Counted from the first letter of the stretch, positions 19,214 to 49,056 are shown. The stretch: 49,056 bases of DNA from Minisyncoccota bacterium (GCA_035438585.1 DAORIO010000001.1:1-49056); one strand, 5' to 3'. Made by a program: numbers and translations. The notes: generated by a model from the letters alone, not told the origin.

Positions 19214-19308
19214 TTTGCGCAGGACTTGTAATTTCTTAATTTTGTATTAATATACAAGGGTTATTAATAATTATTAATTTCAAATTTTTAATTGTTGATT
19301 TTTTATAT

Positions 19309-19381
19309 CCGCCCATAGCTCAGCCGGTAGAGCAGCTCCCTTTTAAGGAGAAGGTCCTAGGTTCGATTCCTAGTGGGCGGA
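19309..19381 (+). tRNA. tRNA-Lys (anticodon UUU), no encoded CCA
   Basis: Manual cloverleaf: acceptor CCGCCCA/TGGGCGG, D arm GCTC/GAGC, anticodon loop CTTTTAA, T arm CTAGG-TTCGATT-CCTAG. Confidence 0.9.
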
Positions 19382-19531
19382 CAAATTTGGACGATAGGAC
19401 AATTTGTCCGCCCAAGCGAGACATCTGCTTGTCTCGCGCCTAGGAATCGAAAAGCTTTTCATTATTTTCGAAGAGCTTTGCTCTCCGAAAATTGAAAAGG
19501 TATACTGTTCGCGTAGCGAAAGATTCCTAGT
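19382..19531 (+). ncRNA. tRNA-trailing structured element, copy 1 (host tRNA-Lys)
   Basis: AATTTGTCCGCCCA (19401-19414) is the exact reverse complement of the tRNA 3' end plus trailer at 19374-19387. Hairpin GCGAGACA/TGTCTCGC has a CTGC-containing loop (19416-19437). CTAGGAATCGAA (19440-19451) is the exact reverse complement of the T-arm at 19362-19373. The conserved core hairpin spans 19452-19500. GGTATACTG follows, then P4 TTCGC-GTA-GCGAA (19508-19520). The sense copy GATTCCTAGT (19522-19531) is identical to 19365-19374. Confidence 0.75.
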
Positions 19532-19590
19532 ATTTCGGCTCGCGAGATTTTTTCGTCAGAAAAAATACTTGTGAGGATAAACTTATTTTT

Positions 19591-34810: not shown

Positions 34811-34990
34811 TTTTGTCCCTGCCAGGAATCGAACCGAAGGCGCTAATTTTTAAGGAGCGAAGCGACTATAAAAATTAAGCGTTTCGACCGCAGGGAGAGG
34901 CGATTCCTGTACTGACCCTGTAAGGGTCGATATCCTGGCGGGGAAATTAAGCGTTTCGACCGTAGGGGGAAGCGATTCCTGGCCGGCAAT
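34811..34990 (+). ncRNA. tRNA-trailing structured element, variant copy (host tRNA-Arg UCU) with an internal 37-nt duplication
   Basis: TGTCCCTGCCAGGAATCGAACC (34814-34835) is a near reverse complement of the tRNA 3' end. A different long hairpin spans 34839-34881. The shared module is GTACTG + ACCCT-GTA-AGGGT + CGATATCCTGGCGGGG (34909-34943). A 37-nt direct repeat lies at 34873-34909 and 34945-34981 (3 mismatches). Each repeat unit ends in GCGATTCCTG. Confidence 0.65.
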
Positions 34991-35126: not shown

Positions 35127-35265
35127 CATGAGCCATGCGAATGGCCGGTAGTGAGTGAACTGCTTCACTCACGTAGGATTTGAAGAGCTTTTCATTATTT
35201 ACGAAGAGCTCTGCTCTGAGAAAATTGAAAAGGTGTACTGAAGCTGTAAGCTTCTAATCCCTTAC
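35127..35265 (+). ncRNA. tRNA-trailing structured element, copy 4 (host tRNA-Val)
   Basis: Hairpin GCCAT-GCGA-ATGGC. Degenerate anti-acceptor CCGGTA. Hairpin GTGAGTGAA-CTGC-TTCACTCAC (35151-35172). GTAGGATTTGAA (35173-35184) is antisense to the T-arm with a 2-nt deletion. The core is GAGCTTTTCATTATTTACGAAGAGCTCTGCTCTGAGAAAATTGAAAAGG. GGTGTACTG follows, then P4 AAGCT-GTA-AGCTT. The sense copy AATCCCTTAC (35256-35265) is identical to 35111-35120. Confidence 0.75.
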
Positions 35266-36382: not shown

Positions 36383-37156
36383 ATGGAAATTATAAAAGAA
36401 ACAAAAGATTATATTATTTTGAACAAACCGGCTGGTTTGGTTGTTCATGGCGACGGAAGAAGTTGCGATGAAACTCTGTCTGATATTTTAATAAAGAAGA
36501 AAATGGTTCCTATAAATGTAGGGGAGCAGATTTCTGTAGATCGAATTGAAGGTGCTTCTATTTGCAAATTGCCTTCGCACAAATACTTAAAAACTATTTT
36601 GAAAATTTATCGCCCTGGTATTGTGCACCGGCTTGATAAAGATACATCTGGAATTATGATTGTCGCCAAAAACCCAAAATCATTTTTATACTTCAAAACA
36701 CAATTCAAAAAAAGACGAGTTATAAAAAATTACAAGGCAATTGTTTGGGGTAAGATAAATCGCCCAACTTTTGCTATTTCAGCTCCAATTGCTCGAAGTA
36801 TGATGGATTTTAGAAAATACAAAACTGGCAAAAATACTCGAGGAGAAAAAAGAGATGCACTAACAAATTTTAGAGTAATTAAGAGTTTTGAATACAATGG
36901 TGAATGGTTTACATATCTAGAAGCGAGTCCAAAAACCGGAAGAACCCATCAGATTCGAGTTCATTTGGCTCATATTGGAAATCCAATTGTTTCAGATTCT
37001 TTGTATGCTGAGGGCAAGCCTCAAATGCTTGGCTTCAAGCGTCCGGCTTTGCATGCTCACAAGATATATTTTAAAGAAATGGAAGGTGAACAGGTCTCCT
37101 ACGAAGCACAAATGCCAGATGACTTCAAAAAGGCACTAGCACTTGTAAATCTTTGA
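36383..37156 (+). CDS. RluA-family pseudouridine synthase
   Basis: HRLDKDTSG catalytic motif and KTGRTHQIRVHLAHIGNPI. I take the start at ATG 36383, because the track GTG at 36368 lies inside the preceding terminator. Ends with TGA. Confidence 0.85.
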   Translation: MEIIKETKDYIILNKPAGLVVHGDGRSCDETLSDILIKKKMVPINVGEQISVDRIEGASICKLPSHKYLKTILKIYRPGIVHRLDKDTSGIMIVAKNPKSFLYFKTQFKKRRVIKNYKAIVWGKINRPTFAISAPIARSMMDFRKYKTGKNTRGEKRDALTNFRVIKSFEYNGEWFTYLEASPKTGRTHQIRVHLAHIGNPIVSDSLYAEGKPQMLGFKRPALHAHKIYFKEMEGEQVSYEAQMPDDFKKALALVNL

Positions 37157-37211
37157 CACCAAAGCATAAGTGTGATTTAATTCAATAAATTTAAATTAAA
37201 ACTCTGCACTT

Positions 37212-37847
37212 ATGAAAAAAATTGATAAAGAAAGTACGTATAACTTCCTTAGAGCATCACTTATCTTGGTTCAATCATTTGCCGTAACCTTAATCATAGT
37301 ATTTGCCTGGTTAAATTTGAGGCATAAAATTTATTATTTTTTTGGGCTAGATGCAAGTGGTTCTCTGGCGACTGAGCTAGGATCGGATCTTGTTGTGTTT
37401 ATGCCGGCAATGCTTTATGGAGCGCTTCAGGCATTTGTCATCAACAGAATAATGGGCCAGAATAGTAGAATAAAATCAGCAATTGATACTAAAAATGCCC
37501 GGTTATTTTTAGAGGAGAGAGATCGTCGTACTCCAGGAATAGTGCATGTAATGATGTTTACAATTTCTTTCCTAACAATAGGCATGGCTTCTCTTTATCA
37601 GTATTGTTCAGAAGAAGTTGCAATCTTTGCTATAGGGACGTGTACATTTATTGCATCACTTGGGTTTTTTGTGGCAATTGAGCTCGATAATCCATTTAAT
37701 GGTGTTTCTCGAATTCCACCTAGTTGTATCCCAAAAGGTTGGAGTACTATGACAATAGAAGATATTGTTTTTAAAAAAGTTCCAAACTTTGAAAATGGAT
37801 TTCTTTCTGATGGTGGAAGTTATTGTGAATTAGATCAATTTGAATGA
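37212..37847 (+). CDS. Membrane protein, unknown function
   Basis: ORF track. Four hydrophobic helices. IELDNPFNG motif. Confidence 0.5.
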   Translation: MKKIDKESTYNFLRASLILVQSFAVTLIIVFAWLNLRHKIYYFFGLDASGSLATELGSDLVVFMPAMLYGALQAFVINRIMGQNSRIKSAIDTKNARLFLEERDRRTPGIVHVMMFTISFLTIGMASLYQYCSEEVAIFAIGTCTFIASLGFFVAIELDNPFNGVSRIPPSCIPKGWSTMTIEDIVFKKVPNFENGFLSDGGSYCELDQFE

Positions 37848-37878
37848 AAAAAGGGCTGTAAAACAGCCCTTTTTTTTG
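37847..37878 (+). terminator. Rho-independent terminator
   Basis: GGGCTGT-AAA-ACAGCCC, then T8. Confidence 0.8.
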
Positions 37879-37914
37879 CGAGTAATTTAGGAGATTATCA
37901 TTAGTGGAACACTA

Positions 37915-37941
37915 TTGACATTTTGTCTAGTTTGTTATAAT
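37915..37941 (+). promoter_or_regulatory. Promoter TTGACA-N15-(TGt)TATAAT
   Basis: TTGACA 37915-37920, extended -10 TGTTATAAT 37933-37941. Confidence 0.5.
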
Positions 37942-38000
37942 CTGGCAAAAATTGATTAATAAAAATTAACTCAAAAATCGAACATTAAAAACAAAATAAA

Positions 38001-38717
38001 ATGATAAATGAACCACAATCACCACAAAACCAAGGATTCGGGGGTATTTTTACCAAGCTTAAACAAGTAGTCTTCACTGAAGAATATCTCGAAGCCACAG
38101 GTCAAAAAACCCAAAAAACAGAAATTAATCCAAACTCCACAGTATTAAAACCAACAACTTCTCTTAAAACAGAAAATGTTACAGTTTCCAATGGAAATGA
38201 AAATTACGTTAAGGAAATGGTAGAAAAGGTTTACTCGTTTCTTGAAAAAGTTAATAAGCCAGGGATTGATTTTATGGAGCTTTGGAATGCAGCTGAAAAG
38301 ATGGGCGGTGTAACCGAACAGAACTTACAGAATGCTTTCACTGCTCTTAAAATTGCAACCGGTGACACTTTAACAACGGACGAATTGATTCGGTCTGGTA
38401 AATCGTACAAGACTGAAATTAATAAGTTGATTGAATCGAACATCAAAGAAAAGCAAAACGAGCGTTTAAAAATTTTATCTAATCAGGAAAGTGAAAAAAG
38501 TAATCTGGAAACAGAAATTACTGATACTGCAGAGCAAATTGAAATTTTGCAGAAGTCGTTGAATGAAAAGAGAGAAAAACTTGCGTCAATTGACGCAAGG
38601 TATAAGCCGGAGGTATTAAATCTTGAAAATAAAATCTCCGCCGGCTCGAGCGCCCTTAATTTTGTGAATACTGAAATGCAATCTGTGATTGATCTTATCT
38701 CTAAAATTAAATTTTAA
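38001..38717 (+). CDS. Coiled-coil protein, unknown function (cluster gene 1)
   Basis: ORF track. The C-terminal half is heptad-like (KEKQNERLKILSNQESEKSNLETEITDTAEQIEILQKSLNEKREKL). Confidence 0.5.
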   Translation: MINEPQSPQNQGFGGIFTKLKQVVFTEEYLEATGQKTQKTEINPNSTVLKPTTSLKTENVTVSNGNENYVKEMVEKVYSFLEKVNKPGIDFMELWNAAEKMGGVTEQNLQNAFTALKIATGDTLTTDELIRSGKSYKTEINKLIESNIKEKQNERLKILSNQESEKSNLETEITDTAEQIEILQKSLNEKREKLASIDARYKPEVLNLENKISAGSSALNFVNTEMQSVIDLISKIKF

Positions 38718-38742
38718 ACTGAACCTAAAATCAAAAATTGAA

Positions 38743-39849
38743 ATGACACAAAATTCTCAATCAATGACATTGTCTAAGGACGTGTCTACGAAACTCCCAA
38801 TCTTTCAAGTTTTGGGAAACCAGTTACCGGAAAGTTTTAAAACACCGGAAGCAAAGAAAACAGGGTCTAAACTTATGTTTTGGCTGTTGTTTGCAGGTAT
38901 GATTTATGGATTTGTAAAAATCCTTCCAATCATACTGGCTTCAACGTGGATGGCCGTCAAGATTGCCCTCTGTATAGCCGTGTTAACCATTTTTGTTATT
39001 GCTTATCCTCATGTTGTGAATTTACTTCACCGTTTAGGGAGAGTGTTAAACAAAAAAGGTGAAATCGGAATTGCGAAAAAGTTTCACATGGAAACTCTAC
39101 GTAATTTAGAGGAGGACGCAGATGACACTTACAAAAAAGTGCGCACAAGAATTACTCAAGTGGAAGGTGTACGTACTGACATGATTACAAGCGCTGAAGC
39201 GGATAATAAATCTGCCGAAGAAAAGTTTGAACATGTTAGGAAGCTTACAGAAGATGCCGGGAAAGAGGATCAGAAAGCGATAAACTTTCAAAAAGAATTA
39301 AATCATGAGAAATCACGACAGGCTGAACGTAGGGCAAATGAGCTTCGGCAAAATGCAAGTATTCTAAAACTCGAAGGAGAATCCACTATGGAAACAGCTC
39401 GCTCGTATGCTCAGTATGCGAATGAATTTGGTAAGGCTATCGAAATCCTTCGGGATAATGAATCAGCTGCCAAAATATTCAAAAACGCACTTTCTTCAAG
39501 TATTCGTATTATTGAAAAGAAACTTGAAGCAACCGACAAGATGAAGGCAGCTACCGATGGTATTGCTGACATCTTTGGGTTCAAAAACAAGTGGGAATTT
39601 CAGGTAGCGATGGATGCTGCACAATCTAAAATCTCTAACAACATTGCAAGCATCAAGAGAAATCTTGAATTTGTAAATGAAAATAACCTTACTTCACTTA
39701 AAACAGCTTCTCAGTCAGAACTTGAAACATTTGTTCAGAAAATTGATTCCGGACATATGAAAAAACTTAATGTGGCAGAAATTACTGATCCACATTATGA
39801 ATTAAGCAAAGAAGAGAAACCTGATTCTTCATTCAACATTCTTAACTAA
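38743..39849 (+). CDS. Membrane-anchored coiled-coil protein, unknown function (cluster gene 2)
   Basis: I take the start at ATG 38743, because the track start at 38689 overlaps gene 1. Two TM helices (LMFWLLFAGMIYGFVKILPIIL, AVKIALCIAVLTIFVIAY), then about 270 aa of helical sequence. Confidence 0.5.
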   Translation: MTQNSQSMTLSKDVSTKLPIFQVLGNQLPESFKTPEAKKTGSKLMFWLLFAGMIYGFVKILPIILASTWMAVKIALCIAVLTIFVIAYPHVVNLLHRLGRVLNKKGEIGIAKKFHMETLRNLEEDADDTYKKVRTRITQVEGVRTDMITSAEADNKSAEEKFEHVRKLTEDAGKEDQKAINFQKELNHEKSRQAERRANELRQNASILKLEGESTMETARSYAQYANEFGKAIEILRDNESAAKIFKNALSSSIRIIEKKLEATDKMKAATDGIADIFGFKNKWEFQVAMDAAQSKISNNIASIKRNLEFVNENNLTSLKTASQSELETFVQKIDSGHMKKLNVAEITDPHYELSKEEKPDSSFNILN

Positions 39850-39886
39850 ACTAACAATTTCAAAATCTTAAAAACTCAGTATCGAA

Positions 39887-41734
39887 ATGGAAAATAAAAA
39901 TCCTAGTATGTGGAACGGCCTTGCGTGGCCTGTTAAAGCTATCTTAATAGTAATAATAATATGCGCAGTTGGATGGGGTGCGTATTCGCTCAATCTTATT
40001 CCAGGTCTTTCGACCGAAGAATCAAAAGTTGTTGCAAAAGCAGAAATGTCTAAGGAGTCGGTTAACACCACTTCTAAAACAGACATGCTGCCGGTACCAA
40101 ACATTGATGAAATGGATTACGCTGAAGTCGATAACCGTCCTTTAATTAAACTCATGAATTGGGTTTGGTTTGGGAATGCTGGTATCTTCTCTGCAAATGG
40201 TGGTCTCGTTACAATGAAAGGAACACTGATGGATGAATACGGATTAAATGTTCGTATGATTACTAACAATAGTGTTGCTGACATGAAGCGAGAACAACTT
40301 GCGTTTGTTAATGCATTTGCCGCGGGAGAAAAAAATCCAGAAGTCGGAGTAGCCTTCGTTACTGTAATGGGTGATGGTTACCCGGCATACGTTTCTGCGA
40401 TGAATCAGCAGATTGTAAAAGCGTTTGGTCCCGAATATAAATTAAAAGTTATTGGGATAGCCGGATTTAGTCTTGGTGAAGATTGTATTATGGGTCCTAT
40501 TGAGTGGAAAGAAAATCCACAATCAATGAAGGGATGTGTAATATCTGCGGTTATTGGTGATGGTGATTGGGGTCTGGGCGTACGTTTTGGGGGCGGGGAT
40601 AATGGTTTAAAAATCAACCCTGATCCTGATACTTATGATCCGGAAGCTATGAATTTCGTGCCTGCACCTGATGATGATTTTATGAAAGCTGCTGAAGATG
40701 TAATTGCTGGACGTGTCGTTGAGCTTAAAGTCAAAGACTCGAACGGTAAACTTACAGGCAAAACTATTAAGAAAAAAATCGAAGGTGCTGGAACTTGGTT
40801 TCCTGGTGATCGTCTTGTGGCGAAAAAGACAGGATTAGAAAAGGTGGTCTCTACTTCTCAATATCCAAATCAAATGGCAACAGTCATTGTTGGATGCGAT
40901 AAGTGGATGAAACAAAACAGCGATTTAGTTGTTAAGTTTCTAAGTGCTACTCTTACTGCAACAAACCAAATTAAGCAACACGAAGAGTGGTTCAAATATG
41001 CAACGGAACTCGCACCAAAAGTTTTCTGTGTTGACGCCAATGAATGTTCGGAAACAGCAGAAGATTGGTATAACTACGGAAAGCCAAATGGCGGGTTTGT
41101 GAAAAACCAAGATGATGTTTCAGTGTCGGTAGGAGGAACCCAAATGGCGAATCTTGCAGATAACAAAAAATATTTTGGTTTACGTGGTGGAAATGATTAC
41201 TACCGATCTGTTTATGAATATTTCAGTAACGTGATCAGGGAACTCAATCCAGCCGGATTCATGGATAACGTTGATGAGCTGACTCCGTACGAAGACGCCA
41301 TTGATCTTAGTTATCTTAAAAAAGTTAACATTGAAGCTGGTAAAACAGTGCCGGTAGATTACTCGAAAAATAAAGGAGAAGCGTTTGCAAGTCGTTCATG
41401 GAAGATCGAATTTCATAACGGTAAGGCAACAATAACTCCTGAGGGTGAAAAAGTTCTTGAAGAGCTTTTCAATGCCTTAAATATTGCCGAGAATGCCAGA
41501 GTAAAAATCGTCGGATACACTGACGATGTTGGAGCAGATGAGGAGAACGAAAAATTGTCTCTTAGTCGCGCCAAAGCTGTTAAGGCATGGTTGCTTCAAA
41601 GATCTGATAACGCTTTCCCAACAGAAAGATTCGTTCCTGTTGAAGGAAAAGGTGAAAAAGATCCTATCGCTTCAAACTCAAACGAAGCAGGTAGAGCACA
41701 AAACAGAAGGGTAGCAATTACTCTTTTGCAGTAA
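39887..41734 (+). CDS. Membrane-anchored ABC substrate-binding-like domain (NMT1/NitT-TauT type) fused to a C-terminal OmpA-like peptidoglycan-binding domain
   Basis: N-terminal TM helix AILIVIIICAVGWGAY. About 430-aa periplasmic-binding-like region. OmpA signature VKIVGYTDDVGADEENEKLSLSRAKAVKAWL...GRAQNRRVAITL. Confidence 0.65.
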   Translation: MENKNPSMWNGLAWPVKAILIVIIICAVGWGAYSLNLIPGLSTEESKVVAKAEMSKESVNTTSKTDMLPVPNIDEMDYAEVDNRPLIKLMNWVWFGNAGIFSANGGLVTMKGTLMDEYGLNVRMITNNSVADMKREQLAFVNAFAAGEKNPEVGVAFVTVMGDGYPAYVSAMNQQIVKAFGPEYKLKVIGIAGFSLGEDCIMGPIEWKENPQSMKGCVISAVIGDGDWGLGVRFGGGDNGLKINPDPDTYDPEAMNFVPAPDDDFMKAAEDVIAGRVVELKVKDSNGKLTGKTIKKKIEGAGTWFPGDRLVAKKTGLEKVVSTSQYPNQMATVIVGCDKWMKQNSDLVVKFLSATLTATNQIKQHEEWFKYATELAPKVFCVDANECSETAEDWYNYGKPNGGFVKNQDDVSVSVGGTQMANLADNKKYFGLRGGNDYYRSVYEYFSNVIRELNPAGFMDNVDELTPYEDAIDLSYLKKVNIEAGKTVPVDYSKNKGEAFASRSWKIEFHNGKATITPEGEKVLEELFNALNIAENARVKIVGYTDDVGADEENEKLSLSRAKAVKAWLLQRSDNAFPTERFVPVEGKGEKDPIASNSNEAGRAQNRRVAITLLQ

Positions 41735-41749
41735 CTTGTTTGAGGTAAC

Positions 41750-41781
41750 AAAAGGCGTCCAATTTAGGGCGCCTTTTTTAA
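41750..41781 (+). terminator. Terminator-like hairpin inside the cluster
   Basis: AAGGCGTCC-AATTTA-GGGCGCCTT, then T6. Confidence 0.6.
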
Positions 41782-41794
41782 AACTAAATAAAAA

Positions 41795-42574
41795 ATGGCA
41801 ACACTTCAAAAAATCTTTACCCCACTTGAGATAGTGGGGGATGGCGTTAAGCGTTCATTAATATTGTTTCATGTGGCTATCCTTGTGTTGGCCTGGACAT
41901 TTCTTGTTCCGGACAAAACATTGTTTCCTAGTCTTGGAGAAGTTTTGGTTGCTTGGAAAGATTTATGGATGAAAGGATTATTCTTTCATATCTTAAAGAC
42001 TCTACAGCTCTGCGGTACTGCAACACTTATAAGTATTATTGTTTCTTGTATTGTTGCTTATGCCTCAACCATTCCATTCTTTACTCCGATTAGTTTATTC
42101 TTCACAAAGCTTAGGTATAACCCCATTCAGGGATTTACGCTCTTTCTGACTATTATGTCAGGTGGGGGCAGAAATCTTCAGATCACTCTCCTCGTTGTCT
42201 TTATGTCTTTTTATTTTATTACCAGTTTAATTTCGGTAATAAATGACATACCACCAGAGGATTTTATCCGAAGAAAAACTCAAAAAATGGGTAACTGGAA
42301 AATTCTTTGGAAGGTGGTAATACTTGATCGCAAAGATTACTTAGTAGAAGTGATCAGGGTTAACCTTGGTATTGTTCTTATGATGATTGTTTCAGTTGAA
42401 GCTATGGATAAAAACCAAGGTGGATTAGGGTCTCTACTGGTTGATACCGGGCGCGGTCTTAATTTCCCTAAGATATTTGCTCTTCAGCTGAACATTTTGT
42501 TGATAGGAATAGGTTTAGACATGTTGCTTCAGTTGATATTTAATTCTTTCCCAGCACAAAAAAAACATAGATAA
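41795..42574 (+). CDS. ABC transporter permease (NitT/TauT SsuC-like)
   Basis: Six TM helices. C-terminal GLGSLLVDTGRGLNFPKIFALQLNILLIGIGLDMLL resembles the permease family loop. Confidence 0.7.
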   Translation: MATLQKIFTPLEIVGDGVKRSLILFHVAILVLAWTFLVPDKTLFPSLGEVLVAWKDLWMKGLFFHILKTLQLCGTATLISIIVSCIVAYASTIPFFTPISLFFTKLRYNPIQGFTLFLTIMSGGGRNLQITLLVVFMSFYFITSLISVINDIPPEDFIRRKTQKMGNWKILWKVVILDRKDYLVEVIRVNLGIVLMMIVSVEAMDKNQGGLGSLLVDTGRGLNFPKIFALQLNILLIGIGLDMLLQLIFNSFPAQKKHR

Positions 42575-42575
42575 C

Positions 42576-43415
42576 ATGAGCGATTATAAAATAGGAAAAC
42601 CGATAGTAACACTCAAAGATGTTTCAAAGTCTTTTGGGAATAAGTTAATCCTCCGCGATGTTGGTACAGAAAAAATACCATTCGTGATATACGATATTAA
42701 TCGAGCAGATTTATCACAAGGTCAAACCATTGCGATTGTTGGGGAGTCTGGTTCAGGAAAATCAACTTTGTTTAAATTGTTAGCCGGTATTTATCCAGCA
42801 ACAAAAGGTAGCATTGAAATTCTTGATTGGGAAGACAATTCTAAATATCAGACTGTGCGTGGGGGAGATGTGGGGTTTGTGCAACAAACATACCCGCTTT
42901 CACGTAACCAGAATGTATACGAAATGCTTACCGATGCTGCAATACAAGGAAATGTGCCAAAAAATGACCGAAAAAGCATAATAGAATCTTATTTAGAAAA
43001 ATGGAATTTAATAAATCAAAAATTTCTAGCTAAGAATCAGTTGTCTGGAGGTCAAAAGCAAAGGGTTGCCATTATTGAACAACTTCTTTGTTCGCACTAC
43101 CTTGTGATCTTCGACGAACCATTCTCCGGTCTTGATGTTCGAAACATTGAGGACGTGAAAAATAGTTTTCGTAAGATATCTTCAACCAGTGAAATTAACA
43201 CAATAGTATTTTCAGCTCACGATATTAATCTAGCTGTTGAACTTGCTGACGTAGTTTATGTAATTGGTTATGAGCGAGGAAGGGACGGCTTGATATTGCC
43301 CGGAGGCACAATTGTTAAAAAGTTTGACCTTATGGAAATGGGGTTGGCTTGGAAAGAATTGACCGCTGGACACCTTGAGGTTGCGTCCGAAATAAAAAAT
43401 ATAATAAAAACATAG
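42576..43415 (+). CDS. ABC transporter ATP-binding protein
   Basis: Walker A GESGSGKST, signature LSGGQKQRVAI, Walker B IFDEPFSGLD, H-loop SAHD. Confidence 0.85.
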   Translation: MSDYKIGKPIVTLKDVSKSFGNKLILRDVGTEKIPFVIYDINRADLSQGQTIAIVGESGSGKSTLFKLLAGIYPATKGSIEILDWEDNSKYQTVRGGDVGFVQQTYPLSRNQNVYEMLTDAAIQGNVPKNDRKSIIESYLEKWNLINQKFLAKNQLSGGQKQRVAIIEQLLCSHYLVIFDEPFSGLDVRNIEDVKNSFRKISSTSEINTIVFSAHDINLAVELADVVYVIGYERGRDGLILPGGTIVKKFDLMEMGLAWKELTAGHLEVASEIKNIIKT

Positions 43416-43425
43416 TTCTTTTTAA

Positions 43426-43455
43426 AGGCTTGGTTGTAAAACCAGGCTTTTTTTA
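43426..43455 (+). terminator. Rho-independent terminator
   Basis: GCTTGGTT-GTAA-AACCAGGC, then T7. Confidence 0.7.
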
Positions 43456-43510
43456 TTTGGCAAATTCAGACTTGTAAAATTCTATTTACTGTGATAAAGT
43501 CCTATTCTAT

Positions 43511-43921
43511 ATGGCAATAACGCTTACACCGGTAAACATAGACGAAAGAAAGAAACTTGAGTTCAACTCAGGGGATACAGTTCGTGTATGGGTAAAAATT
43601 GAAGAAAAAGGAAAGACTCGAACTCAGGCTTTTGAAGGTCTTGTTCTTTCACGAAAGCATGGGTCTGAAATCGGAGCTACTTTTACAGTCCGAAAGGTTT
43701 CAAACTCTGTTGGAGTAGAAAGAATTTTCCCACTATATTCAACAATAATCGATAAAATCGAAGTTGTTAAAAAATCTCGCGCCCGAAGAAGTAAACTTTA
43801 TTACATTCGAGACAAGGCTGCTCGAGAAGTAAAGAGAAAAATGAAAGCTGTAACTATCGGAGCAAGTAAAATGGAAGGAGTAGAAGAATCAGCTGAAGAA
43901 GTGGTAAATACTGAAGAATAA
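43511..43921 (+). CDS. rplS: 50S ribosomal protein bL19
   Basis: GDTVRVWVKIEEKGKTRTQAFEGLVLSRKHG...FTVRKVSNSVGVERIFPLYS. Acidic C-terminal extension. Confidence 0.9.
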   Translation: MAITLTPVNIDERKKLEFNSGDTVRVWVKIEEKGKTRTQAFEGLVLSRKHGSEIGATFTVRKVSNSVGVERIFPLYSTIIDKIEVVKKSRARRSKLYYIRDKAAREVKRKMKAVTIGASKMEGVEESAEEVVNTEE

Positions 43922-43950
43922 AAAATCCCGCATAATGCGGGATTTTTTGT
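43919..43950 (+). terminator. Rho-independent terminator
   Basis: ATCCCGCA-TAA-TGCGGGAT, then T6. Confidence 0.8.
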
Positions 43951-43990
43951 ATCGACAAAATAAATAATTCGGTTAGTATATAAGGGCAAT

Positions 43991-44040
43991 GCTCAGGTGG
44001 CGAAACTCATAAGGACTACAGCACGCACTATGGTGGTGTG
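43991..44040 (+). pseudogene. Degenerate 5' portion of a tRNA-Leu gene
   Basis: GCTCAGGTGGCGAAACT matches the first 17 nt of the intact tRNA-Leu (GCGCAGGTGGCGAAACT) at 16/17. ...CACGCACTA..GGTGGTG then echoes the D and anticodon stems. No T-arm or acceptor 3' strand follows. Confidence 0.55.
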
Positions 44041-44083
44041 ATTATGATTGGATTATGTATTTTATACCGGCATTTAGTAATTT

Positions 44084-44167
44084 GCGCAGGTGGCGAAACT
44101 GGTAGACGCACTACCTTGAGGTGGTAGCGGGAGCAATCTTGTGGGAGTTCAAATCTCCCTCTGCGCA
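44084..44167 (+). tRNA. tRNA-Leu (anticodon GAG), type II, no encoded CCA
   Basis: GCGCAGG/TCTGCGC acceptor, loop TTGAGGT, extra arm, T arm GGGAG-TTCAAAT-CTCCC. Confidence 0.85.
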
Positions 44168-44171
44168 CAAA

Positions 44172-44200
44172 TAAAAAATCCTATTTTGTAGGATTTTTTA
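44172..44200 (+). terminator. Terminator after tRNA-Leu
   Basis: AATCCTA-TTTTG-TAGGATT, then T6. Confidence 0.75.
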
Positions 44201-44367
44201 TTTTAAGCGAAGATTTGAACGGGAAAGGGGTCGGGAAAACGGTAGTTTTCCTGTGGAGGAGGCAGTGACATTGAGCTTGTCGAAGTGGAGCGTTGGAACC
44301 GCCTGGTTCCAAAACACAGCGAGTTTACGAGCGAGTAGTGAAATTCTCCCCCTGCGCACAAATAAAA
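44201..44367 (+). ncRNA. tRNA-trailing element, divergent-core variant (host tRNA-Leu)
   Basis: AGATTTGAAC (44211-44220) is the reverse complement of the T-loop/stem. Three unrelated hairpins follow: GGAAAAC/GTTTTCC, GACA/TGTC and GGAACC/GGTTCC. The element ends in GTGAAATTCTCCCCCTGCGCACAAATAAAAAAT (44337-44369). That stretch is a 29/33 copy of the tRNA 3' end plus trailer. Confidence 0.6.
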
Positions 44368-44400
44368 AATACCCAAAATATTTTGGGTATTTTTTATTTT
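44364..44400 (+). terminator. Second terminator, following the decoy tRNA-Leu 3' end
   Basis: ATACCCAAAA-TA-TTTTGGGTAT, then T-run. Confidence 0.7.
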
Positions 44401-44424
44401 TTACGTGTATAATTTACATTACAA

Positions 44425-44829
44425 ATGAATTCAAAAAGAAAACTTTTAATATTCGTACTTACGGTTTTAGTTTTAGTAATTTTTGCTTATGTTTTAAAAC
44501 AAGGTAAGAAAATATCACCAACAGAAGGGTTAACTTCTACCTGGGAAACTTTTAAATATAACGATAAGGATTTTCCATATCCACCAAATTGGACATTTGA
44601 AGAAGTGCTTGGTGGAAAAAATGGAAAAGAAGTTGTAGGTGTTTTGGTTTATAAAAAAAATTTAGAAAACAAAGAAACAAATGTCATGGTTGGAGGAGGG
44701 AAAGAGTGTGAGGAATTGAGAGATCAGAAGCTTTGTCTTGGTAAAAATCCTGTTTACACAGACAGCCAGGACCCAGAAGCAATGCAATTGTTTGAACTTT
44801 ATGTTCGAATTAATGAAAATCCACAATAA
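44425..44829 (+). CDS. Membrane-anchored small exported protein
   Basis: MNSKRKLLIFVLTVLVLVIFAYVL anchor. Confidence 0.5.
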   Translation: MNSKRKLLIFVLTVLVLVIFAYVLKQGKKISPTEGLTSTWETFKYNDKDFPYPPNWTFEEVLGGKNGKEVVGVLVYKKNLENKETNVMVGGGKECEELRDQKLCLGKNPVYTDSQDPEAMQLFELYVRINENPQ

Positions 44830-44860
44830 AAAAAGTGAAAATCGTTTATACTATATATAG

Positions 44861-47506
44861 ATGATTACAGAAGAACTTCTATCATATATTAAAAAGCAGT
44901 TAGAATTGGGACACTCAGAAGAAACTGTTAAGAAAATTTTAATTGATCATAAGTGGAAACAAGCTGATGTTGATCAGGCTTTTTCCGCTGTATTAGGTGC
45001 AAAGCCTCAAAATACACAAGGAGAGGTTGCCTCAATTATGCGACCTGGATTTTCAGGAAACCAAGCGCAACCTGTTGCTCAATTTTCTCAACCGCAAGCG
45101 CAAGTTCAGCCACAGATTCAAATGGCACAGCCTCAAGTTCAGCCGATTCAGGTAACACAGCCCGTACAACAAGCACAACCGACTTTCCGGCCACAATACA
45201 CTCAACCAGCTCAAGTTGCACAAGTTCTTTCTCGTCCAGAGATAATGGCACAGCCTGTCGTAGAGAAAGCTCCGGCTCAACAAGCAGAAACAGCATTTCA
45301 AATAAATCCAAAGTTACAGCAACAATTTCAAACTGACACTCAAAATCCAATTCAACCACAACCTCAGTCAGTTGTTGCTGAGAAAAATATTGCGCGACCA
45401 GTTGAGGTAAAATCAGAAAGTCCTGTTTTTATGCCAAAGACTTTTAACGCAAAACCACTTAGTGAAATACAGACAGACAAAAAAGTTCAATTTGGTGCAG
45501 TTATTCAACCAAATGAAGTTAGACAGCCTGAAATAAAATTGGAGCCAGAGATTGTCGCAGATGCAAATAATGATTTTTATAAATCATTAACTACAAACAC
45601 AACAGAGGTTTCTAAAAATGAATCTGGGTTTACATCTTTGGCTTCCAAAAAACCAGAAACAATAACGGAGGCGGGAAGGGTTATTGGTCAGCCTATGTTG
45701 AAACCAAAAACTTTTGGACCGAAAGTTTTTGGTAATAATCTGCAATCTCAGTTTAATAAAATGGAACCATCAAGTTATGGAAAATTTGCAACTCCCCAAG
45801 CAGAAGGAAAAATCTCTTCGTCTAGCGAGGAAGCAATGCCACCGCTCGGAGCTCAGTCTGCGGATTTGTATCAAAAAAATAAACCAGATGATGTTGCACA
45901 AAAAGAAGCTCAAAACAAAATGCCCATACAGATGGCAAATCAAAGCAATCCAAATATTTCAAGTATAAACATTCCTGAGTCAAAAACTACAAAGAGTCGT
46001 TTTTTGAAAAAAGTTTTTTTCCTACTAATTTTTATTATTGTTATAGGTTTAATGGTTTATGGTTATCTTGTTTTTTTCAGTAGAGGTATATATCAAGATT
46101 CTAAATTTATGGAAAAATTTCAAAATGTTTCTTCTGCTAATTTTGAAATTACCGCAAGTGGACCAATTTTAAGTACTATTTTCCCAACATCAGAAGATCC
46201 GAATTTACTAACAGCAAAGATAAATTCTTTTATTGATGTTTCTGATTCTAGTAACAAGATTTCAAATTTTGAGGTTGGTCTTAAAAACGGAAAAGAATTA
46301 AATTTTAATGTAATAAGTACAAATACTGCTTCTTACGCGTATACAACTTATGAAGATTTTTCTTTTAAAAATCAGTGGATTCAATTAAACGGTCCATTTT
46401 TCCAATCATTTTTGCCTAGTATGCTTTCTGGGACTTTACCAAACGGCTTAATTTCAGACAGTGGTTTTGTTTTGGATGAAAAAACCTCTTTGAGTATAAG
46501 GCAGCTTTTTAGTAAGTTTCCGATTTTAGCGCTAACTTATGAAAAAAAAGGTGAAGATGTTGGTGATAAAAAAGCAAAAATATATTCTTTTGAATTAAAT
46601 AAGGAGGCAATAAATTTGTATTTAGAACAACTTTCTGTTTTATCAAAGGGTTCTTCTGGTTATGAAAAATCTATAGAAAAAATTAAAAACCTGTTAAGTA
46701 TTTTAGAGTTAAAAGAGGGGACAATATGGATAGATCAAGATGGGTTGCCTGTTAGAATTATGGCAACAATGAATACAATAGGTAATACATCTACTAGTTC
46801 AATAAATATCGAAATAAATTCTTATAATGAAAAACAAAACATTTCTTTACCTAATAATTTTATAAAACCAGAAAGTTCTAACGGTGATGTTTCTTTTGCA
46901 GAAACTGAATTGAAAGATTCTATTAGAACGGTTTTTGTTGATTTGCAAAGTATTTCAAATTCTTATAAAGCTTCAAAAAATGGAAATTTTACAGGTATTT
47001 GTCAGGACATGCCTTCTGGTTTTTCAAGTAGATTTAAGGATCTTGAGGTTGTATCACCTAACACTAATCCAATTTGTAAAGATGGCGTTTCTGGATTTTT
47101 AGTTGGTGCAAAATATGCAAATAATAAATATTTATGCGTTGATAAGCTAAAAATAGCAGACTCTGATGAATCTGGAATTTTAGGAGCATCTCTTTCTTGT
47201 GTTAATTCAAAAGAATCGATATCAGAAGATTTATATATAAAAGAGACAATTATAGCTTTTGCTAATATCGCCAAATCTTACAAAGCTGAAAATCAAAATT
47301 CTTTTTCGGGACTTTGTGCTAGCGAGAGTTATTTGATGTTTAGTAGAGGGCTTCAGTCTGCGGTTAGTAAGCCTTCTCAGTGTTTAAGTACTGGCACAAC
47401 TTATGCAGTATTTAGCCCTCTTTCTACTGGAGAGTACGCTTGTATTGATACCACTTCAAAATATACTGTTTCTTCAAGTCCACTAACCACAACAAGTTGT
47501 AAATAG
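44861..47506 (+). CDS. Large bitopic envelope protein: small helical N-domain, Q/P-rich repeat region, TM helix, and an extracytoplasmic domain with duplicated Cys-containing C-terminal modules
   Basis: PQAQVQPQIQMAQPQVQPIQVTQPVQQAQP region. TM helix FFLLIFIIVIGLMVYGYLVFF. Two related modules: SNSYKASKNGNFTGICQD... and AKSYKAENQNSFSGLCAS... Confidence 0.65.
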   Translation: MITEELLSYIKKQLELGHSEETVKKILIDHKWKQADVDQAFSAVLGAKPQNTQGEVASIMRPGFSGNQAQPVAQFSQPQAQVQPQIQMAQPQVQPIQVTQPVQQAQPTFRPQYTQPAQVAQVLSRPEIMAQPVVEKAPAQQAETAFQINPKLQQQFQTDTQNPIQPQPQSVVAEKNIARPVEVKSESPVFMPKTFNAKPLSEIQTDKKVQFGAVIQPNEVRQPEIKLEPEIVADANNDFYKSLTTNTTEVSKNESGFTSLASKKPETITEAGRVIGQPMLKPKTFGPKVFGNNLQSQFNKMEPSSYGKFATPQAEGKISSSSEEAMPPLGAQSADLYQKNKPDDVAQKEAQNKMPIQMANQSNPNISSINIPESKTTKSRFLKKVFFLLIFIIVIGLMVYGYLVFFSRGIYQDSKFMEKFQNVSSANFEITASGPILSTIFPTSEDPNLLTAKINSFIDVSDSSNKISNFEVGLKNGKELNFNVISTNTASYAYTTYEDFSFKNQWIQLNGPFFQSFLPSMLSGTLPNGLISDSGFVLDEKTSLSIRQLFSKFPILALTYEKKGEDVGDKKAKIYSFELNKEAINLYLEQLSVLSKGSSGYEKSIEKIKNLLSILELKEGTIWIDQDGLPVRIMATMNTIGNTSTSSINIEINSYNEKQNISLPNNFIKPESSNGDVSFAETELKDSIRTVFVDLQSISNSYKASKNGNFTGICQDMPSGFSSRFKDLEVVSPNTNPICKDGVSGFLVGAKYANNKYLCVDKLKIADSDESGILGASLSCVNSKESISEDLYIKETIIAFANIAKSYKAENQNSFSGLCASESYLMFSRGLQSAVSKPSQCLSTGTTYAVFSPLSTGEYACIDTTSKYTVSSSPLTTTSCK

Positions 47507-48961: not shown

Positions 48962-48988
48962 AAAAGACCGGACAAGCGGCTTTTTTAT
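48962..48988 (+). terminator. Weak terminator-like hairpin after tRNA-His
   Basis: AGACCG...CGGCT (5 bp with one bulge), then T6. Confidence 0.35.
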
Positions 48989-49056
48989 TTGGGTTACTAA
49001 GCGAGCAAAATCTGTATCTTTATGGGATAATTTTTAGGTTAAGACTAAAAAGACAT

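Follow-up and report, generated by a model that had tools for sequence, protein, structure and literature searches.

The DNA analyzed here (the window, a single stretch of 49,056 nt, in which the features of the locus described here lie on the plus strand) belongs to the metagenome-assembled genome (MAG) of an uncultured member of Candidatus Paceibacterota (CPR/Patescibacteria), and its ribosomal protein L19 is 100% identical to a Candidatus Paceibacterota MAG protein. The L19 gene, rplS (43511..43921; Pfam Ribosomal_L19, E=1.9e-34), serves as the upstream anchor of the locus, and orthologous loci (numbered below with the prefix L) were obtained as the rplS neighborhoods fetched via the L19 proteins of relatives. 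At the end of rplS lies a terminator hairpin formed by AAAAAATCCCGCAT and ATGCGGGATTTTTT (43920..43948), a perfect 14-nt inverted repeat that is followed by a T run and is conserved in relatives. Next comes a promoter-like site, TCGACA-16-TAGTAT (43952..43979; 9/12 in a consensus scan), at the ancestral position 5' of an older tRNA-Leu gene. The block GACAAAATAAATAATTCGGTTAGTATA is common to the window and to L158, where it precedes an intact tRNA, and the site is a putative promoter.

The remains of the older gene, a decayed 5' half (43991..44040), align with the tRNA-Leu of L158 and are separated by a 43-nt spacer (44041..44083) from the working gene, an intact tRNA-Leu(GAG) (44084..44168). 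The spacer has no significant similarity to the cassettes of L160 and L006 (described below) or to the middle of the tRNA, and may contain the present promoter of tRNA-Leu. The working gene, which the first-pass annotation had already considered intact, is called by ARAGORN at 44084-44168 and matches the full Rfam tRNA model at 49.9 bits; CCA is not encoded, and the gene differs from that of L010 at one of 85 nt.

Downstream of this gene, the trailer CAAATAAAAAAT and a bidirectional terminator-like hairpin (hairpin 1, a perfect 15-nt inverted repeat; 44169..44203 for both) are followed by a decayed inverted copy of the tRNA 3' end (44205..44220, including AGATTTGAAC), a non-coding core without fold signal or family (44221..44336), a displaced copy of the tRNA 3' end (44337..44370) and a second hairpin (hairpin 2, ACCCAAAATATTTTGGGTA; 44360..44399), a perfect 20-nt inverted repeat and the putative ancestral terminator of tRNA-Leu. 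The next ORF 3' of the locus starts at 44425. Both hairpins are perfect A/T-rich inverted repeats with T runs after them, and neither was called by the consensus terminator scan because that scan requires at least three G-C pairs. Two different terminators had been described at the locus in the first pass; the two inverted repeats with their T runs are present and do differ, although the scan is blank at both, and termination is their probable role.

The 5' relic and the 3' insertion

The upstream piece had been reported to match the first 17 nt of tRNA-Leu at 16 positions, and formal alignment places the similarity above chance. Nucleotides 43990-44007 (TGCTCAGGTGGCGAAACT) agree with the first 18 nt of tRNA-Leu at 17 of 18 positions, and when tRNA positions 1-45 are aligned locally to the upstream spacer (162 nt) the score is 17, compared with 7.1 ± 1.3 in dinucleotide shuffles, none of which reaches 17 (0/2000; z=7.7). 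The relic begins with the acceptor 5' strand and the start of the D arm; 10-15 nt within the D loop are replaced, and ACGCACTA and an anticodon stem that has lost its loop come next. The echoes of the D and anticodon stems noted earlier correspond to ACGCACTA (8/8) and to this loopless stem, and are clearest in relatives, where the region reads GCACTACGGTAGTGC. The relic is also present in L001, L003, L004, L005, L010 and L011, at least partly without a 3' copy (L001/L003/L004/L005). In L158 (L19 83% identical), an intact tRNA-Leu sits at the position that the relic occupies in the window and in L001, at the same distance from rplS and 3' of a shared conserved block (GACAAA..ATTCGnTTAGTATA..AAT). 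The relic is therefore the 5' half of the original gene at its ancestral position, in agreement with the earlier reading of this piece as an older tRNA-Leu gene, and by alignment it adjoins the putative old promoter. Among the seven tRNAs in the window, Leu is the only one with a 5' relic; the first pass had proposed to look for half-gene relics at other tRNA loci, and five others carry copies of their 3' end in their trailers.

The downstream copy, previously counted at 29 of 33 positions, is the same repeat that we measure at 30/34 (88%) between 44337-44370 and 44146-44179, i.e., the last 22 nt of the tRNA plus trailer. Its score of 26 compares with 7.3 ± 1.1 in dinucleotide shuffles (0/2000; z=16.8). 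Within the copy, 44337-44344 is a decayed part of the T arm, while 44345-44370 is better kept and comprises the end of the T loop, the 3' strands of the T stem and acceptor stem, the discriminator, and a 12-nt trailer that follows both tRNA 3' copies. This 26-nt segment differs from the left copy by one base in the window (25/26), and ~25 nt are identical between the repeat copies in L010 and L011.

Relative to genomes with an empty site, the window contains an insertion of 191 nt (44180..44370, from blastn and alignment, 191 also being the repeat spacing), which is bounded by a direct repeat of 25-34 nt that begins at the end of the T loop and runs into the trailer; its boundaries slide by up to 34 nt within the repeat, and 44146-44336 is an equivalent description. 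By blastn, window 43470-44178 corresponds to L001 9954-10660, and window 44342-45057 to L001 10633-11350; the two segments overlap by 28 nt on the L001 side, and the window is exactly 191 nt longer. We read this overlap on the relatives' side as the signature of a duplicated target, and the attL/attR-like duplication that had been suggested for the locus is borne out on its 3' side by the direct repeat of 25-34 nt. The sequence of hairpin 1 (TCCTATTTTGTAGGA) occurs, in all data examined, only in the window, L010 and L011, and the hairpin is part of the inserted DNA, the extra sequence being hairpin 1 and the core.

The non-coding stretch of 133 nt after hairpin 1 (which ends at 44203) opens with AGATTTGAAC (44211-44220), which had been described as T-arm antisense and is an exact reverse complement of the T-loop region. 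Taken alone the match is not significant (266/2000 shuffles reach the same score), but it gains weight because the same feature occurs at the same position in five other tRNA trailers. L010 and L011 read GAGGATTTGAAC there, which is complementary to the T arm of the tRNA-Leu allele of L003 and L004. The three hairpins formerly assigned to this region are not supported by folding, since shuffled sequences fold as well as the 157-nt stretch 44204-44360 does (z=-0.98). No credible ORF is present in the insert. Searches of the Leu region against Rfam at permissive thresholds returned tRNAs only, with no match to the insertion core, and no relatives of the core were detected by nhmmer in Patescibacteria loci totaling ~0.9 Mb, nor in two scans of viral contigs. 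One metagenome 18-mer scan gave chance matches only, plus the box ATTGAGCTTGTCGAARTG, which was discarded as a relative of the core because it is found in unrelated low-GC contigs, unlinked to tRNAs. Between the window and L010, the core differs at 10 of 157 positions (6.4%, counted on the alignment) and the upstream spacer at 11 of 162 (6.8%), so that the core evolves like the flanking intergenic DNA. Given this rate of divergence, and the lack of an ORF and of relatives in these searches, we interpret the insert as probably inert, and as either non-autonomous or the remnant of a larger element.

Orthologous loci and a LAGLIDADG cassette

The arrangement in L010 and L011 (L19 99% identical) is that of the window, insertion included. 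In L001, L003, L004 and L005 (L19 94%), the 5' relic and the tRNA are followed directly by the trailer and one terminator, and these four supply the empty, single tRNA-Leu that the first-pass annotation had proposed to look for in relatives. The tRNA-Leu of L160 (L19 97%) and of L009 (78%) is also followed directly by a single terminator, and in L006 (87%) a 74-aa ORF lies between tRNA-Leu and a hairpin homologous to hairpin 2. Such homologous hairpins are found 3' of the tRNA in L001 and L003 as well, and the terminator of L160 is base-for-base hairpin 2 of the window, which places the right-hand copy of the tRNA 3' end with the ancestral terminator. The 191-nt insertion is thus present in the window, L010 and L011, and absent from L001/L003/L004/L005, L160, L006 and L009, of which L006 and L009 serve as outgroups and lack both the 3' element and the 3' copy. 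The direction of this indel is a matter of parsimony over nine sampled genome types; a deletion between the direct repeats would yield the same empty site as non-insertion.

A different kind of DNA occupies the 5' side in other strains. In L160, L006, L007 and L008, the space between the rplS terminator and tRNA-Leu holds a fragment of the old tRNA, an ORF, and a complete tRNA-Leu(GAG). The fragment (GTGGTAGACGCTATTACCTTGAGC), 24 nt long, extends from the D stem to one base beyond the GAG anticodon, and the ORF runs on directly from it (259-261 aa in L160 and L006). The encoded proteins of L160 and L006 match Pfam LAGLIDADG_3 (28.6 bits, against a cutoff of 22.5), are 71% identical to each other, and have two LAGLIDADG-type motifs visible in the alignment, LLVADGCLYNDG and LRGSFDGDGTF; the LAGLIDADG ORF is found at this same locus in all four strains. 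Although L19 is 97% identical between L160 and the window, their tRNA-Leu(GAG) genes are identical at only 66 of 89 positions, and the cassette-linked allele differs in the anticodon stem and the acceptor stem. From these features, L160 and L006 look like carriers of a free-standing homing-endonuclease cassette that targets tRNA-Leu and brings a divergent replacement, an allele that is presumably resistant to the endonuclease. A cassette with its own tRNA-Leu inside an older gene, as had been envisaged for the window, is seen in these relatives, at the anticodon loop. The broken target gene takes two forms, a 24-nt fragment fused to the ORF in the relatives and an old 5' half at the ancestral position in the window. 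The agent seen on the 5' side in relatives is, judging from its protein family, a LAGLIDADG homing endonuclease and not an integrase, IS110 or TnpB.

A group I intron in tRNA-Leu was considered and rejected: Rfam detects none in the window region or the L160 cassette, and the downstream tRNA is complete on its own. In the window, tblastn finds no LAGLIDADG ORF or remnant of one, and the spacer 44008-44083 has no significant similarity to the L160 and L006 cassettes, so that the case for a cassette in the making of the window relic is one of position. With a cassette or an uninterrupted site in sister strains, the tRNA-Leu gene emerges as a repeated target of mobile DNA.

Trailers behind other tRNA genes

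The tRNA genes for Lys, Arg(GCG), Ser, Arg(TCT) and Val are each trailed by a module with copies of their own 3' end, comprising inverted blocks, each an exact match of 9-15 nt, and a direct copy (9-14 nt) whose start lies within the T loop or beside it. In the Lys, Arg(GCG) and Ser modules there are two inverted blocks, one complementary to the acceptor 3' strand and discriminator, the other to the T loop and T stem. At the point where tRNA-Arg(GCG) and tRNA-Ser have a G-U pair, their inverted acceptor blocks carry the base that forms a Watson-Crick pair with the 3' strand, and hence these blocks are not copies of the tRNA 5' end. Four of the modules share a core, here termed type A (GAARAGCTTTTC ... 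AAAAGGTRTACTG), in which P2 (CUGC loop), GAARAGCUUUUC, P4, AAAAGGURUACUG, and P5 (UGUAA loop) follow one another, P2, P4 and P5 being covarying helices. The Leu trailer lacks this core and has in common with these modules only the arrangement, in which the tRNA 3' end recurs in inverted and in direct orientation.

When species-representative genomes were scanned for the pattern, ~60 type A copies came up, all in Patescibacteria MAGs. Across 60 aligned copies, 94.2% of cells are paired, compared with 68.7% in shuffles, and covariation is 0.622, against 0.150 in shuffles (0/500) and at most 0.136 with partners slid; the six invariant P4 pairs do not count here, since the search pattern prescribed them. 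On the tRNA-sense strand, G-U pairs outnumber A-C by ~3 to 1. Of 66 copies, 35 lie 35-110 nt (two at 231-261 nt) behind a tRNA on the same strand, with 17 anticodons represented, and the remaining copies have no recognizable tRNA upstream. The arms match their own tRNA at 9.97/12 and 9.46/12 and other tRNAs at 7.3/12 and 6.8/12. The evidence for the arms consists of this tRNA-based comparison, the exact blocks, and single-sequence folds, two crude ungapped measures of pairing between arm and 3' copy being uninformative owing to bulges and insertions. No protein family recurs beside more than four of 61 type A loci, and those that do recur are housekeeping genes. Rfam, searched with one type A element at permissive thresholds, returned tRNAs only, and the literature searches made found no description of these trailer elements. 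Type A is a conserved structured element, absent from Rfam, that occurs across Patescibacteria. Compared by eye, its consensus does not appear to fit hammerhead or other known small-ribozyme cores, IS200/IS605 ends, integron attC core sites, or the IS110 bridge RNA.

Close strains differ in the presence or absence of type A, in swapped P4/P5 alleles, in an inverted tRNA-Lys segment, and in a rearrangement breakpoint at a 3' arm. Since the same trailer grammar occurs with at least three unrelated cores, we suspect that it is a trace of DNA insertion or rearrangement rather than the function of one RNA, and that it reflects how DNA enters or rearranges at tRNA sites. A broader reading, which we regard as possible though somewhat unlikely, joins the Leu insertion with type A and type B as an undescribed class of protein-less elements in Patescibacteria, or takes type A as a new tRNA-specific partner RNA. 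The ends of such protein-less elements may be the inverted and the direct copy of the host tRNA segment from T loop to acceptor; folded as single-stranded DNA or RNA, they may rebuild the 3' duplex of the tRNA gene or the top half of the tRNA, and this mimic may be the substrate for insertion, exchange or inversion by a trans-acting enzyme.

Folded single-strand recombination sites are known from integrons (attC) and from CTX-phi, whose attP hairpin is used by XerCD. The resemblance would be one of working principle only: the trailers hold inverted and direct copies of their target, a fold of one strand could rebuild the tRNA 3' duplex, and the inverted arm would adjoin one junction after integration of a hairpin, as it does at Leu. 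The trailers differ in that they have no GTTRRRY/RYYYAAC core, and there is no integron integrase and no Xer gene at hand; unlike attC, the central sequence of type A is strongly conserved. Structures that resemble tRNA also occur in non-tRNA transcripts, e.g., mascRNA, viral TLS, and the tRNA-like domain of tmRNA. Like these, type A is predicted to form helices that resemble the acceptor and T stems, and their sequence is that of the neighboring tRNA, but the acceptor-like helix extends over the discriminator and a three-way junction replaces the T loop, and the Leu element does not fold in this way at all.

History of the tRNA-Leu gene

We consider it most likely, with moderate confidence, that the locus holds a functional tRNA-Leu(GAG) amid the scars of two separate insertions of selfish DNA. 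In the older event, on the 5' side, the original gene, which lay ~55 nt after the rplS terminator, would have been broken, leaving its first ~45-50 nt as the decaying relic at 43991-44040 and the working copy 93 nt further downstream. The LAGLIDADG cassette at the same spot in sister strains makes an endonuclease cassette the likely agent: the endonuclease would cut the resident tRNA-Leu, and the cassette with its replacement tRNA would be copied in during repair. By its position, such a cassette could have made the window relic and then lost its ORF. In the second event, on the 3' side and confined to the lineage of the window, L010 and L011, foreign DNA of ~165 nt without coding content, made up of the A/T-rich hairpin, the decayed inverted copy, and a core of ~115 nt, would have entered at the T loop/3' end, leaving the direct repeat that runs from the T loop through the acceptor end into the trailer. 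The left repeat would complete the working tRNA, and the right one would stay with the ancestral terminator. Recombination at a tRNA T loop would be expected to leave such a footprint (attL/attR), and the enzyme and mechanism would be of that kind. The insert encodes nothing, and would thus either depend on functions supplied in trans for its movement or be what is left of a larger element.

Pfam scans of ~45 ORFs in the 49-kb window detected no integrase, transposase, reverse transcriptase, TnpB/IscB or endonuclease, and no tyrosine or serine recombinase in or beside the insertion; the recombinase, IS110-like and TnpB/IscB genes for which the first-pass annotation had recommended a search are not among them. 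These ORFs are ordinary chromosomal genes, including those for TyrRS, RuvABC, PilB/PilM, Pol I, TsaE, Fur, Fpg and an ABC transporter, and no enzyme in the window can accordingly be tied to either event.

The locus had initially been read as one cassette (tRNA, terminator and element) nested in an older tRNA-Leu gene, and of that reading the two relics, the older gene, the mobile DNA, and the attL/attR-like repeats on the 3' side stand, while the single nested cassette is not supported. It would require that spacer, new tRNA-Leu, hairpin 1 and core entered the old gene together, between anticodon arm and T arm, and that sister clades later lost hairpin 1, core and 3' copy via the 25-34 nt repeats, a history that we judge unlikely. 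The 3' copy (tRNA positions ~49-85, plus trailer) complements the relic (~1-45), as would two pieces of one tRNA gene broken once, an observation that speaks against two events. In L160 and L006, the old gene has indeed received a cassette with a whole tRNA-Leu, deletion between direct repeats restores exactly the empty site observed, and one cassette with later deletions needs about as many steps as two events. A precedent exists in phages that break a host tRNA and bring a copy with them (PMC10865867). The distribution of the pieces argues the other way: the relic occurs without the 3' copy in L001/L003/L004/L005, so that losses are needed in that clade, and the cassette bearers L160 and L006 lack the 3' element too. 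The variable arm, the middle of the tRNA, would be expected at a junction and is matched beside either relic at chance level only, and the two outer junctions have no common core sequence. The large indels of the relic are common to both clades, whereas the 3' copy has kept a perfect stretch of 25-26 nt; and the identical 12-nt trailer on both copies, unexpected for an imported gene, better fits a local duplication or an att core.

Two further explanations dispense with a mobile 3' insert. The 3' module could be a functional structured RNA, the Leu version of the trailers that mimic the top half of a tRNA, its inverted T-loop segment and 3' copy pairing with each other or with the tRNA. Its grammar is indeed that of types A and B (hairpin, inverted tRNA 3' end, core, direct copy near the T loop), and type A is clearly under structural selection by the pairing and covariation given above, but the Leu core has no sequence in common with type A or B, its fold is no more stable than that of shuffles, its divergence is that of intergenic DNA, and close relatives do without it. 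Of the inverted arm only 10 nt remain, and these do not pair with the 3' copy of the same module. We therefore hold a functional RNA at this locus to be very doubtful. Little likelihood likewise attaches to an origin of both relics in local replication errors, with no mobile DNA involved, in which part of the gene was duplicated in tandem, or replication switched templates at the terminator palindrome and took up filler DNA, and decay followed. Long palindromes do extend from the tRNA 3' end through the hairpin into the inverted copy, the 56-nt perfect palindrome at the Ser locus is of the type that provokes fold-back priming and template switches, and the window has no mobility gene. Such errors leave ~115 nt of core and hairpin 1 without a source in the locus, however, and they sit poorly with an identifiable homing-endonuclease cassette at the same position in relatives and with the same grammar, on at least three unrelated cores, behind many different tRNAs.

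The two insertions favored here have counterparts among known systems. Recombination into tRNA genes classically leaves a direct repeat that extends from the T loop across the 3' end. Integration of islands and prophages into tRNA genes, with attL/attR repeats and a T-loop class of crossover sites, was reportedly described by Reiter in 1989 and Williams in 2002. Like such elements, the Leu insert lies in a tRNA gene, is flanked by a direct repeat from T loop through 3' end to trailer, regenerates one intact tRNA, and has an uninterrupted site in relatives; unlike them, it is ~165 nt long, codes for nothing, has no integrase in the element or the window, and carries an inverted tRNA 3' end beside its own hairpin. 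At ~165 bp, the insert would be a very short substrate for recombination as a double-stranded circle, which weighs against the two-event view.

Free-standing homing-endonuclease genes propagate by cleaving a conserved gene, after which they are copied into it along with flanking DNA; SegB in the tRNA gene region of phage T4 is one example. The LAGLIDADG family in this comparison is Pfam PF14528. In keeping with such genes, L160 and L006 have a double-motif LAGLIDADG ORF in tRNA-Leu at the anticodon loop, presence/absence is polymorphic among close strains, and the neighboring tRNA is a divergent allele, as would be expected of an immune target. The window differs in having no endonuclease ORF or remnant, and no intron was detected around the ORF of the relatives. 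In tRNA-dependent lysogeny, as described in PMC10865867, phages interrupt a host tRNA gene when they integrate and provide a copy of their own. The L160 and L006 cassettes resemble an element of this kind in that they destroy the resident tRNA and bring the same isotype, but the carrier is an endonuclease cassette of ~0.9 kb, or nothing in the window, rather than a prophage with an integrase. Two known kinds of event, a tRNA-gene integration scar and a homing-endonuclease replacement, are thus combined at this locus, while the family of tRNA-customized trailers around it may be new.

Because CPR/Patescibacteria genomes are small and their tRNA genes usually single-copy, DNA that breaks one of these genes must restore it. 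The tRNA-Leu locus shows two modes of restoration side by side: an endonuclease cassette with its own tRNA, seen in sister strains and marked here by the 5' relic, and a tiny, gene-less insert that duplicates the tRNA 3' end. It also offers the cleanest comparison of an empty and an occupied site for a larger phenomenon, the tRNA-customized modules behind nearly every tRNA in this DNA. If these modules are mobile or functional, they would represent a new kind of tRNA-linked element, and a marker for genome rearrangement in an uncultured phylum.

Type A elements at tRNA 3' ends

The window holds four copies of the type A trailer element, each ∼130–150 nt long and positioned 3' of its host tRNA gene: tRNA-Lys [19403–19531 (+)], tRNA-Arg(GCG) [25484–25348 (–)], tRNA-Ser [30319–30187 (–)], and tRNA-Val [35150–35265 (+)]. 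In each, a conserved core lies between an inverted and a direct copy of the T-loop-to-acceptor segment of its own tRNA, and the core hairpins show strong covariation. Around 60 more copies occur outside the window in Patescibacteria MAGs, and a comparison of type A with Rfam returned no match. Separately, two Patescibacteria loci that also bear type A contain matches to the LOOT RNA (RF03000) above the Rfam gathering score (L125, 6743–6867; L054, 2109–2233), a few kb from the type A copy.

At tRNA-Ser, the 3' strand of the acceptor, the trailer, the terminator, and the next anti-acceptor block together make up a perfect 56-nt palindrome [30363–30308 (–)]. After the tRNAs for Arg(GCG), Ser, and Leu come hairpins with A runs on the 5' side and T runs on the 3' side, which thus look bidirectional.

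Trailers of tRNA-Arg(TCT) and tRNA-His

A different trailer, type B, follows tRNA-Arg(TCT) in the window [34815–34990 (+)], in two relatives carrying the rplS locus (L001, 6324–6425; L010, 3493–3695), and in a further locus [L055, 4082–4175 (–)]. Its parts are 15–24 nt of the tRNA 3' end in inverted orientation, a core of ∼70 nt, and GATTCCTGGC. Nested within the trailer of the window and of L010 is a type-A-like 3' module (TACTG, a hairpin, and GATATCCTGGCGGG), bordered by an internal duplication of ∼39 nt; the stem of the module's hairpin differs wholly between these two close strains.

The region 3' of tRNA-His includes a terminator, a complement of the acceptor end, and a hairpin (window 48983–49056; L001 15294–15520; L010 11570–11625). 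In L001, the anti-acceptor-plus-hairpin unit is duplicated (∼34 nt) on the flanks of a complete type-A-like variant, and L010 has this unit once only, so the locus constitutes a second empty/occupied pair.

Rearrangement at and near the trailers

We compared the tRNA-Lys segment of the window (19214–19590) with those of related loci (L155 and L156, 2239–2500; L153, 2049–2500). The clade in which SpoU is 83% identical lacks a type A element here, and its tRNA-Lys segment, which lies between YibE_F and SpoU, runs in the reverse orientation. A strain with 96% SpoU identity carries a tRNA-Lys element with another P4/P5 allele, and the element and its adjoining ∼40-nt block are in swapped order. 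Inversion of strand is also seen in L009, in which tRNA-Arg(TCT) and tRNA-Val lie on the opposite strand.

Synteny between L011 (680–980) and the window (35256) ends exactly at the 3' arm of the Val trailer (AAATCCCTTAC). Left of this breakpoint, the L011 sequence comprises a GC-rich region of ∼250 nt followed by a diverged type-A-like element; the GC-rich region recurs 5' of type A copies that have no tRNA (L013, L055, L058, and L101) and terminates in degenerate tRNA-3'-like sequence.

In the window, rplS is separated from the pseudouridine synthase gene by a 6.3-kb block (37155–43469) with genes for a Bestrophin-like protein, a protein with an OmpA domain, an ABC ATPase, and uncharacterized products; no mobility gene was seen among its contents. 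The block is missing from L001, L010, L011, and L160, where the synthase gene adjoins rplS.

The tRNA-Leu element and tRNA-Leu alleles

Part of the core of the Leu element (window 44270–44296; ATTGAGCTTGTCGAAGTGGAGCGTTGG) is similar to a short box in metagenome contigs of low GC content (L133, at 8477; L140, L145, L146, L148, and L149), where it occurs in places as inverted pairs and has no tRNA nearby.

Among relatives with 94% L19 identity, the tRNA-Leu alleles of L003, L004, and L005 (e.g., L003 4219–4303) differ from that of L001 (10566–10650) by clustered compensatory changes in the T stem and first acceptor pair (GGAGG/CCTCT+C against GGGAG/CTCCC+T). In L010 and L011, the Leu element has an inverted arm (GAGGATTTGAAC) that complements the L003-type T arm and not that of its own tRNA; these sequences hint at allele exchange at the tRNA-Leu 3' end.
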